Virus record (IMG/VR): IMGVR_UViG_3300021142_000004
Length of the DNA stretch: 64,000 nucleotides
Strand: one strand, 5' to 3'
Source: a virus
The notes beneath the pieces are model-generated. The model saw nothing but the letters and a program-made list of their open reading frames with translations. It was not told the origin of the DNA and made no database searches. Made by a program: the position numbers and the translations under genes. Shown piece after piece: positions 12,347 to 38,140 of the stretch (positions are counted from its first letter, which is position 1; every line of letters starts with the position of its first letter).

Positions 12347-12664
12347 TTAAAATGATAAATCATTAAAACGACCCCATTTTCTATATAATTTAAATGGATT
12401 TCTATACTTCATATTATGTTTAATTACACCATCTCCTCTAATTAAACATTGTCTTCCATCTTTATGTTGAACAGCTAAAATAATTTCATTTACCCATCTT
12501 TCATGTTGTTCTAACCCAAAAACAATACCTTCTTCCCCCGTTAAAAATTCCTTATTATATTTTTTATTTTTAAAATCAAAATATTCAAAATATTCAATAT
12601 AATGAGAATAAGTACTACCTGGATTAATTATTTCAACATAATCTCCAATATTAAAATCACACAT
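12347..12664 (-). CDS. SH3/KOW-like small protein with near-terminal RNPFKLYRK tag
   Basis: IGDYVEII..G..Y...G.EG.V; tag followed by TGG where some other copies have TGA. Confidence 0.75.
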   Translation of the reverse strand: MCDFNIGDYVEIINPGSTYSHYIEYFEYFDFKNKKYNKEFLTGEEGIVFGLEQHERWVNEIILAVQHKDGRQCLIRGDGVIKHNMKYRNPFKLYRKWGRFNDLSF

Positions 12665-12671
12665 AAAAAAA

Positions 12672-12923
12672 TTAATTAAATCTTTCAATATAAATTGGTG
12701 TTCTTTCTCCTACATATGCACAATAAACATTATATTCCAAATATTCAATTGCGTCAGAGTATTCCATTTCTTTCATAAGAATTTCGATCATTAATTCTTT
12801 ATCATAAACTAATTTCATAGAGTTTGTTTCAATACCGATTATTGCTTCATCAAACCCATCTGCTTTAAGTAATTCTTCATCAGGATAATTCTCAATGATA
12901 GAATCTAATATATTTTTTCCCAT
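12672..12923 (-). CDS. conserved phage hypothetical protein
   Basis: ADGFDEAIIG...AIEY.EYN...AYVGE.TP. Confidence 0.85.
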   Translation of the reverse strand: MGKNILDSIIENYPDEELLKADGFDEAIIGIETNSMKLVYDKELMIEILMKEMEYSDAIEYLEYNVYCAYVGERTPIYIERFN

Positions 12924-12989
12924 GAAATCAAATATAATAAAAATATTTGACTATTAGAAATTTTAAGTGATGTTAAACGTATAAAATGT

Positions 12990-13250
12990 TTCATTCGTTA
13001 AAAATGAATCGGGGCCGAATCCCAACAATCTATTGCTTTTTCATTTTACCAATAGTCTAACACCACTTAATTTTCCAAGGTAGGAATAGTTCTCTTCCAT
13101 TTCACCTACCAATGAGACAACTTACTAGAGTATTATTACAGTCTCTTACCCGTTTTTAAACCTGAACTATTACGGATCGTTATATATCACACTCCACTCT
13201 ATTAAAGTGGGTGAATCAGGGTTTTTGGGGTGTTTATCATTTCAACCCCT
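12990..13250 (-). ncRNA. candidate structured non-coding RNA
   Basis: Intergenic, GC-richer than flanks, about 8 helices with G-U pairs favouring the minus strand, possible CCUGA/UCAGG pseudoknot. Confidence 0.65.
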
Positions 13251-13255
13251 AAGAC

Positions 13256-13582
13256 TTATAATATTATTTTTTTTTCAAATTTATGTTTTGATAAATTAAT
13301 ATCTGCTTTCCAAGATATTGCTAAGTTAGCTAAACTACATAATGATGTTGCAACTAACATTGGTTCTGGTTTCATGTTAAATATTGAACCTACAACAACA
13401 ATACCAATTGATAATAAAGTAAGTTTATCGGAAATTACATTTTGTTTACCATAATTCCTTAATGTATTATCAATATTATCTAATCTAATTGAATCAGATT
13501 TAATATCCCTAATTTGTGAGTACGATGATGTTGTTATAATCATCATTAAAAATAATAAAAAAATTTTAATCTTTTTTCTCAT
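13256..13582 (-). CDS. secreted/membrane protein
   Basis: Signal peptide plus two hydrophobic segments. Confidence 0.65.
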   Translation of the reverse strand: MRKKIKIFLLFLMMIITTSSYSQIRDIKSDSIRLDNIDNTLRNYGKQNVISDKLTLLSIGIVVVGSIFNMKPEPMLVATSLCSLANLAISWKADINLSKHKFEKKIIL

Positions 13583-13812
13583 AAAAATATCCTTTTTCAT
13601 CATAACATAATTTCCTTAATTCTTCCCATGTTGGTTTTGTATTTTCAGGGACAAAGAATTCAATCCCCCATCCTGATGCACATACTTCATCCACTTCACC
13701 AGTTAAATCTAAATATGCTACTCTAACTGCAATTCTTAAAGGATAATCTGAACCACTAGGTAATTCACCTATATCACCACCAATTAAACAACTCCAATAT
13801 TTTTTTGCCATA

Positions 13813-14049
13813 TTATTTTCTATATAATTTAAATTTACCTCTATGTACTTTTTTAACGTATGGTTTATAAACACCATTACCATTAACTCCACCAAAATAT
13901 ACTACATCATCATCACTAGATTTAAAGATACTCTCAACAATAAATTGTAAACCAGATTTAAATCCATATCCAAGTTGAGAACAATCCAAATGTAAACCTC
14001 TTAATTCGATACATTCAACCAAATTACCAACCTTAATTTCATCTTCCAT
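13813..14049 (-). CDS. SH3/KOW-like small protein with C-terminal RGKFKLYRK tag
   Basis: IKVG.LVEC..; tag at terminus. Confidence 0.75.
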   Translation of the reverse strand: MEDEIKVGNLVECIELRGLHLDCSQLGYGFKSGLQFIVESIFKSSDDDVVYFGGVNGNGVYKPYVKKVHRGKFKLYRK

Positions 14050-14064
14050 AACTAAAATTTTTTA

Positions 14065-14102
14065 AGCAAAAATAAGGGGAATTTTTCAATTCCCCAAATT
14101 TA
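14065..14102 (-). promoter_or_regulatory. fused terminator/promoter (copy 2)
   Basis: 38-bp identity to 2698-2735. Confidence 0.85.
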
Positions 14103-15484: not shown

Positions 15485-15539
15485 TTTATTTTAATGATGC
15501 AAATATATGGTATTATTTTTTACTGAACAAATTTACTTT
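15485..15539. repeat. 55-bp promoter-containing direct repeat (copy 1)
   Basis: Matches 17697-17751 with one mismatch. Confidence 0.9.
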
Positions 15540-17696: not shown

Positions 17697-17751
17697 TTTA
17701 TTTTAATGATGCAAATATATGGTATTATATTTTACTGAACAAATTTACTTT
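17697..17751. repeat. 55-bp promoter-containing direct repeat (copy 2)
   Basis: Matches 15485-15539. Confidence 0.9.
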
Positions 17752-19686: not shown

Positions 19687-20130
19687 TTATTTTATTTTTA
19701 ATTCTTTTTCCATATCTCTCTTAATATCCTTCTCTTTAAGGGATTCTTTTTTGTTGGCGTGGTTCTTACCCTTAGCCAGGAATATTTCGACCTTTAATAG
19801 TCCCTTATCGTTACAAAACACACGATAAGGAACAATCGTTAAACCTTTAACCAATTCTTTTTTCAGTCTATTTAATTCAACCTTCTTTAATAGGAGTTTT
19901 CTATCTCTTGTTGATTTATGACTATATGGTGAATCAGTCTCAGGAATATTAGAATTCCTTATGAATAGTTCATCATTATCAAATATACAGAACGATTCTG
20001 ACAATGATAGTTTACCTGCGAAGATTGATTTTACTTCAGTACCAGTTAATACTATCCCTGCAACTTCATTACGAATAAATTCATAATCAAACTTAGCTCT
20101 CTTATTTACTATGTTAATATTCCGTGACAT
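19687..20130 (-). CDS. smpB: SsrA-binding protein
   Basis: NKRAKFDY, AGIVLTGTEVKSI, RDRKLLL, GLTIVP, AKGK. Confidence 0.96.
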   Translation of the reverse strand: MSRNINIVNKRAKFDYEFIRNEVAGIVLTGTEVKSIFAGKLSLSESFCIFDNDELFIRNSNIPETDSPYSHKSTRDRKLLLKKVELNRLKKELVKGLTIVPYRVFCNDKGLLKVEIFLAKGKNHANKKESLKEKDIKRDMEKELKIK

Positions 20131-38102: not shown

Positions 38103-38140
38103 AGCAAAAATAAGGGGAATTTTTCAATTCCCCAAATTTA
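38103..38140 (-). promoter_or_regulatory. fused terminator/promoter (copy 3)
   Basis: 38-bp identity to 2698-2735. Confidence 0.85.

Follow-up and report, generated by a model that had tools for sequence, protein, structure and literature searches.

The window, i.e., the whole stretch of 64,000 nt of phage DNA that was analysed, is AT-rich (GC 0.274 overall), and a crude greedy gene map assigns 113 of its 129 genes to the minus strand. According to the same crude map, no other stretch of the window without an ORF is as long as positions 12924-13255 (332 nt), a gap bounded by two minus-strand ORFs (13256-13603 and 12672-12923), and stops crowd all six of its frames. An earlier note, made from the sequence alone, had pointed to the region because of its size and elevated GC content and had read it as a multi-hairpin RNA encoded on the minus strand. 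Both observations were reproduced, as the GC content of the gap is 0.33 versus 0.274 for the window overall, with a peak of 0.36 at 13000-13199 (200-nt windows), and all eight proposed helices were found at their minus-strand coordinates. The predicted RNA, in the following referred to as the element, was found in two phage clades, designated type A (including the window) and type B. The features of the locus, in the direction of the minus strand, are as follows:

14067-14098, minus strand: closest upstream exact promoter motif, likely the start of the operon, with the element at the operon's 3' end
13256-13603, minus strand: upstream ORF of 115 aa, hydrophobic, no family, accompanies the element in type A
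12990-13255, minus strand: whole element, an RNA of about 256-266 nt, 5' end at the base after the upstream stop codon
13227-13249, minus strand: H1, GGGGU / ACCCC with a 13-nt loop, compensatory G-C to A-U change in type B
13216-13220, minus strand: CCUGA, 5' strand of a candidate pseudoknot, partner UCAGG at 13161-13165 in the H3 loop
13190-13213, minus strand: H2, hairpin of 10 bp (type B: 9 bp), position shared by the two clades
13148-13177, minus strand: H3, AUCCGU / ACGGGU with an invariant 18-nt loop, one double and one single compatible change
13164-13171, minus strand: AAUAGUUC, candidate kissing-loop strand in the H3 loop, complements GAACUAUU
13114-13145, minus strand: H4, GAGAC / GUCUC, loop of 22 nt, one G-C pair replaced by G-U in type B
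13079-13110, minus strand: H5, GGUAGG / CCUACC with a 20-nt loop containing GAACUAUU (13085-13092), one double and one single change
13060-13078, minus strand: single-stranded junction UUGGAAAAUUAAGUGGUGU, 19 of 19 positions identical between the clades
13030-13055, minus strand: H6, CUAUUG / CAAUAG, weak, four of six pairs kept in type B
13000-13026, minus strand: H7, GUUGGG-AUUCGGC-CCCGAU followed by UCAUUUUU, terminator-like
12990-13008, minus strand: H8, UUCAUU / AAUGAA, overlaps the U-tract, one double and one single change in type B
12929-12960, minus strand: host-type promoter of the 83-aa gene, TTTC-N20-TATATTTG, read from the sequence, outside the RNA
12672-12923, minus strand: downstream gene of 83 aa (phrog_13182), widespread, mostly without the element nearby

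The stems are short and the loops comprise 13-22 nt, and the element finishes either in the U-tract of the terminator (13000) or with H8 (12990). The ORF of 115 aa shares 38 nt (13566-13603) with a further ORF of 109 aa (13566-13895), which lies upstream of it. As the protein of this further ORF finishes with ...YFYEKK in relatives, the ATG at 13582 is the likelier start of the membrane-protein gene (108 aa). Other genes near the element encode an RNA ligase, a soluble AAA+/M41 protease and a DUF7275 protein, along with many small uncharacterised ORFs. The gene of the 723-aa AAA+/M41 protease is flanked by near-identical promoter copies at 15500-15531 and 17712-17743. ARAGORN identified no tRNA genes in the 64-kb window.

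Homologues of the element were reached via the neighbouring proteins and their contigs. Type A comprises the window, an identical copy (L114), a copy with a single difference within the H4 loop (L113) and a partial copy (L088), and type B comprises two identical copies (L091 and L092) and one with two differences (L112). The contigs belong to the ENA series GROS21, KRAE22 and BUCK21 and to JGI 3300013094, with lakes as their source. Types A and B share 76% identity overall, with 69 differences over about 286 aligned positions. The covariance model R1, which was built from both types, scored 329 bits at window positions 12978-13256 and 338-345 bits for the type-B copies. It detected no further copies of the element in the window, in 114 loci and in 151 sampled Bacteroidota genomes, and weak matches in two loci (L109 and L111) appear to be spurious. 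A blastn search with 1.1 kb against a phage GenBank collection yielded no match. Pattern scans with the exact invariant loop motifs gave no match in viral contigs. In metagenome contigs they gave one chance match (L102), a weak negative since the pattern-bearing JGI contig of L113 went unreturned, and in genome contigs two matches within coding regions (a pyrH-like and an oxidase-like gene), both of which were judged to be due to chance. The carrier is a freshwater T4-like phage, and the element was found in just two lineages.

Most relatives of the downstream gene do without the element. In 80 IMG/VR loci with an 83-aa gene (47-63% identity), blastn, nhmmer and R1 identified no element upstream. 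Even in four relatives (L089, L090, L098 and L099) whose 83-aa protein is 94-98% identical the element is absent, and about 91 unrelated bases replace window positions 13571-12967, that is, the 115-aa gene together with the element; the promoter stretch 12929-12960 is retained in relatives lacking the element. Conversely, in the L081 clade a homologue of the 115-aa gene (70% identity) is present without the element, and the spacer downstream of this homologue is AT-rich and unrelated. The existence of close relatives without the element indicates that it is an accessory, dispensable and swappable cassette, and the setting of this cassette is a small-ORF region bounded by promoters. A transposon was rejected as its vehicle, as the only repeat flanking type A is a weak direct repeat (79% over 29 AT-rich nt).

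As only a single sequence had gone into the proposal of the helices, type B provided an independent test of the fold. The covariation check asked for in the earlier note came out in favour of the structure: compensatory double changes between types A and B, which represent two lineages only, occur in H1, H2, H3, H5 and H8. H1 (G-C to A-U), H3 (C-G to U-A), H5 (A-U to G-C) and H8 (U-A to G-C) carry one double change each; H2, which lies in a segment that is just 59% identical, displays a C-G to U-A double change and an A-U to G-U single change. Further single changes compatible with G-U pairing in type B are found in H3 (U-G to U-A), in H4 and H5 (both G-C to G-U) and in H8 (C-G to U-G). All 37 modelled pairs are standard in both types, including four double and four single compatible changes, with H2 outside this set; with H2 the totals are five double and five single compatible changes. 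The claim that G-U pairs work on the minus strand only held as well, since the five single changes are G-U there and A-C on the plus strand, indicating that the folded strand is the gene-sense strand. H7 is invariant in type B except for its outermost pair, the outermost pairs being broken in both H7 and H8, and for H6 type B prefers a shifted register. RNAalifold independently recovered H1, H3, H4, H5, H7 and H8. The partial type-A copy L088 is otherwise the same but has a 2-nt insertion in a linker and a G to A change, which represents an independent U-G to U-A replacement in H3. On this comparison of sequences, six to seven of the eight predicted helices are conserved in type B by compensatory or wobble-compatible changes.

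Hairpins called in the identical manner in the flanking coding DNA of the alignment between the window and L091 served as control. Among the changed pairs, 11 of 18 were still paired in the helices compared with 17 of 52 in the coding control (Fisher p 0.03). Compensatory doubles amounted to five in 50 pairs of the helices but only one to two in 198-383 control pairs (Fisher p 3e-4 to 1.4e-3), and the hairpin density of the element is about three times that of coding DNA. A rough neutral expectation, which depends on the assumed rates, is 0.8-1.3 doubles (p ~0.001-0.01), and a covariation shuffle control returned 24/500, with a floor of 1/16 for two sequences. As there are only two independent lineages, the covariation represents a single pairwise comparison.

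The folding energy does not add to this evidence. The earlier note had named dinucleotide shuffles as the yardstick, and by this measure the whole fold does not exceed chance: the minimum free energy (MFE) of the minus strand has a z of -1.16, and 21 of 200 shuffles were as good. The plus strand has a z of -0.34, the homologue L091 of type B one of 0.10 and the core from H3 to H5 one of -0.13. Local stability beyond shuffles is limited to H2 (z -2.9 in the window and -2.1 in type B) and, in the window only, to H6 (z -3.0). As the energy equals that of shuffles in both clades, evidence from a single sequence alone would not carry the claim of a structured RNA. Taken as a conserved structured ncRNA, the element thus exhibits compensatory changes (p ~1e-3, two clades) but no folding stability beyond that of shuffled sequences.

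The conservation is concentrated in the core. From H3 to the junction the two types are 88% identical, compared with 80-83% for the coding flanks, and the H3 loop (18 of 18 positions) and the H5 loop (19 of 20) are virtually unchanged, while the 3' half of the H4 loop is conserved; the element overall is less conserved than its flanks. The H3-loop strand AAUAGUUC (13171-13164) is the exact 8-nt complement of the H5-loop strand GAACUAUU (13092-13085). A loop match of at least 8 nt occurred in 44 of 20000 loop shuffles, which corresponds to p of about 0.1 once all 45 comparisons between loops are taken into account. Since neither strand varies, the kissing loop is a candidate contact that covariation does not support. 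The same applies to the pairing of CCUGA (13220-13216) with UCAGG (13165-13161) that the earlier note had suggested: both strands are present and identical between the clades, in contrast to the variable flanks of CCUGA, which leaves a candidate pseudoknot, read from the sequence, without covariation. The recurrence of UGAAA could be confirmed (four occurrences versus 1.3 expected, p ~0.04); the likeness to T-loops seen in it could not, as there is no loop of the GUUCGA or GUUCAA type.

Homology between types A and B begins at most about 10 nt from the upstream stop codon, and the upstream genes are unrelated between the clades. For the Bacteroidota-type promoter motif TTTG-N18-22-TAnnTTTG, the window contains 25 sites (e.g., 14067-14098, 2700-2731 and 38105-38136) where 6.5 would be expected, and 24 of the 25 are located on the minus strand. 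Three of the promoter copies, all the same 32-mer, have a GGGGAATT-GAAA-AATTCCCC hairpin as spacer. No exact promoter motif is present between 14098-14067 and the element, which would therefore constitute the 3' end of an early transcript of about 1.1 kb with three small ORFs. In type B (L091, 2378-2667), a duplicated promoter (TTTG-N20-TATATTTG) is followed by two tiny ORFs (33 and 48 aa), both hydrophobic, and then by the element; neither ORF is related to the 115-aa protein of the window. At the other end, a scan for terminators matched H7 (13026-13008, tail TCATTTTTAA), the only terminator-like site in 12500-13800, where 0.2 were expected. With its GC-rich stem and U-tract, H7 may well be an intrinsic terminator and is here referred to as terminator-like. 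H8 overlaps the U-tract and yet covaries, indicating that some transcripts probably reach about 12990. We infer this layout of the transcript from the positions of promoters and terminator.

The earlier note had considered the element to be a novel ncRNA to which no family could be assigned, and this view was upheld: Rfam and ARAGORN were negative, while the type-B homologue keeps six to seven of the eight predicted helices together with the invariant loops. Rfam 15 gave no match at the gathering threshold in the window and none at E<=10 inside 12924-13255. The tRNA- or ribosome-interacting and sponge roles offered as examples received no direct support, as no T-loop, tRNA-like domain or similarity to tmRNA was identified. 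ARAGORN and the Rfam tRNA model were also silent with regard to a tRNA or a tRNA-like cloverleaf with T-arm and acceptor stem. A riboswitch or leader of the 83-aa gene was excluded because this gene's own promoter separates the element from the ATG and because over 80 loci have this gene but not the element. T-box and group I intron were rejected for lack of Rfam support and because of the promoter between the element and the next gene. A hidden protein gene was rejected, as the six frames are full of stops and only a frame of 19-23 codons is common to both clades.

Our preferred reading, which is tentative and held with somewhat less than even confidence, is that the gap encodes a genuine structured ncRNA of about 260 nt outside the described families, encoded last in an early operon and probably acting in trans. 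With regard to its parts, selection on the structure appears quite probable, and, if the structure is selected, action in trans is moderately probable. According to the proposed mechanism, the RNA would form the closing section of an early transcript, which would start in the window at the host-type promoter 14098-14067 and in type B at a dedicated promoter followed by the two tiny ORFs. The RNA body would then be compacted by the loop-loop contact between H3 and H5, perhaps also by the CCUGA/UCAGG pseudoknot. It could act in trans via its invariant loops and the junction, most plausibly as a decoy or sponge for a host or phage protein. Its role would be that of an accessory early function, the type of which is swapped by phages in hyperplastic regions. 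As no conserved promoter precedes the element, we infer rather than observe an independent trans-acting RNA. A bolder version, in which kissing loops assemble the RNA within one molecule or as an RNA-only oligomer and in which a phage of Bacteroidota uses it in trans as a decoy for counter-defence or host takeover, is quite unlikely.

The main rival is a module acting purely in cis, i.e., a 3' UTR whose conserved structure closes the early operon with H7 and H8, protects the upstream message against 3' exonucleases and insulates the promoter of the 83-aa gene from read-through, while a free RNA would have no function. We regard it as unlikely but serious, since the homology starts just past the upstream stop codon in both clades with no promoter ahead, H7 is the sole terminator-like site of the region and is directly followed by a promoter, and small upstream ORFs are always part of the cassette. 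However, a terminator or stabiliser does not need invariant loops of 18-20 nt, a 19-nt junction or an 8-nt complement between loops. In addition, the RNA is conserved while the upstream genes are unrelated between the clades, and there are relatives without any terminator at the same position. It is rather unlikely that no structure is selected at all and that the gap represents DNA in decay (what remains of a lost gene, for example, or a mobile cassette or ancient promoter hairpins), with helices and paired changes that arose by chance in a GC-richer patch. This reading retains some probability because the energy test fails and only two lineages are available. In line with it, MFE z values lie near zero, the overall identity (76%) falls short of the flanks, indels cluster in this region, and the 5' half of H1, GGGGUUGAAA, is similar to the hairpin spacer TTTGGGGAATTGAAAAATTCCCC of the promoters. 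It accounts poorly for five doubles in five blind-predicted helices against one to two in 198-383 control pairs, for a core conserved beyond the coding flanks with no gene remnants in any frame, and for a near-identical strain (L088) that differs only in ways tolerated by the fold.

Two further alternatives centre on the short frame that is the sole ORF kept in both clades. The frame (UUG)-GUA-GGU-GAA-AUG..., whose AUG lies in the open H5 loop, could be a tiny gene encoding MEENYSYLGKLSGVRLLVK (MKENYSHLGKLSGVLL in type B), with a merely regulatory structure. This is improbable, as one synonymous difference (GUU to GUC) contrasts with three replacement differences after the AUG, the frame lengths differ, two of the changes are compensations within the H5 stem, and the conservation reaches far 5' through H3 and H4. 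The element could also be a non-canonical tmRNA-like partner of a phage SmpB with the frame as tag. This idea was tested because the phage carries SmpB and because the conserved frame (GEMEENYSYLGK...) loosely resembles Bacteroidota tags. A full-length smpB gene is located 6.5 kb away (19687-20130, minus strand; Pfam PF01668, E 2.8e-42, entire profile covered), neither ARAGORN nor Rfam identified a tmRNA anywhere in the 64-kb window, GE..ENYSY is loosely similar to the tags GENNYALAA and ADDYSYAMAA, and GGGGUUG at the 5' end can pair with CGGCCCC at the 3' end. Nevertheless, a tRNA-like domain is absent from the element, as are a GGUUCGA T-loop, an arm ahead of the supposed acceptor strand and a terminal CCA, whereas four Bacteroidota tmRNAs that were compared all possess T-loop, arm and CCA end and none is similar to the element. 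ARAGORN and the Rfam tmRNA models were silent on the element, and with the same tools tmRNA scored above cut-off in four out of five genomes of Bacteroidota. For the G-to-A change in the 5' GGGG, the compensating base lies within the local H1 and not in CGGCCCC, and the frame ends with ...RLLVK* in type A and ...GVLL* in type B, while Bacteroidota tags end with AMAA or ALAA. Finally, L093 has SmpB near the locus but no element in its 5.8-kb locus. As every tested feature failed, tmRNA (RF00023) was rejected, and a tmRNA-like partner of SmpB is highly improbable; its likeness to the element amounts to a similar length, the SmpB in the phage and the loosely tag-like frame. Either a phage tmRNA is encoded outside the window, or SmpB works with the host tmRNA. 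The SmpB of L093, encoded two genes upstream of the homologue of the 83-aa gene, is 91% identical.

Among known systems, the closest analogues of the structured RNA that we favour are, by description, other orphan phage RNAs such as RNAC and RNAD of T4. The latter are stable, co-transcribed with other genes and located in the tRNA cluster. They are small phage RNAs whose function is still unknown and which are classed as late (PMC9697503). The element would likewise be a small orphan ncRNA of a T4-type phage. In contrast to RNAC and RNAD, it resides in an early-type small-ORF region with Bacteroidota-type promoters and with no tRNA in 64 kb. Bacterial sRNAs derived from 3' UTRs, such as CpxQ and SroC, share the terminator of their mRNA, comprise about 50-100 nt, depend on Hfq and act by base-pairing. 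The element resembles them in its position directly past a stop codon, in having no promoter of its own and in ending at the operon terminator, but differs by its length of about 260 nt, its eight hairpins and its long invariant loops. It also comes from a phage of Bacteroidota, which generally are not known to possess Hfq. ROOL and GOLLD, both represented in Rfam, are phage-borne accessory RNAs with elaborate folds in which loop-loop contacts matter and whose function is unknown; compared with these (>500 nt) the element is much smaller, has no Rfam match and has no tRNA genes nearby.

The modules of hyperplastic regions in T4-like phages are bounded by PeSL promoter-terminator cassettes (PMC2839356, PMC4122927). 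The element and its upstream ORF similarly form a swappable cassette between promoter-bearing boundaries, which is present or absent in close relatives, and in type B the duplicated promoter stands at either side. The PeSLs themselves are short regulatory motifs responsible for the shuffling, whereas here the cargo itself would be a conserved RNA of 260 nt. Structured RNAs of phages are few and mostly have no known function, and phages of Bacteroidota are especially under-explored with respect to RNA biology. A compact, defined fold, candidate tertiary contacts and natural variants with and without the element in nearly identical phages make it a tractable candidate for an accessory phage RNA. 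We consider it a well-supported orphan candidate from two uncultured lineages and not a mechanistic discovery. The reading as a decoy or oligomer would, if true, represent a class of phage RNA effectors without a described family.

A guide RNA of TnpB was also rejected as an identity of the element, given that it has no Rfam support and that TnpB, about 1 kb away in some type-B contigs, is absent from L112. Where present, the TnpB of 456 aa (Cas12f1-like_TNB) is encoded about 640 nt downstream of an 86-aa gene, and L112 has different genes at this position. The TnpB gene of these type-B contigs seems to be a recent arrival with no relation to the element.
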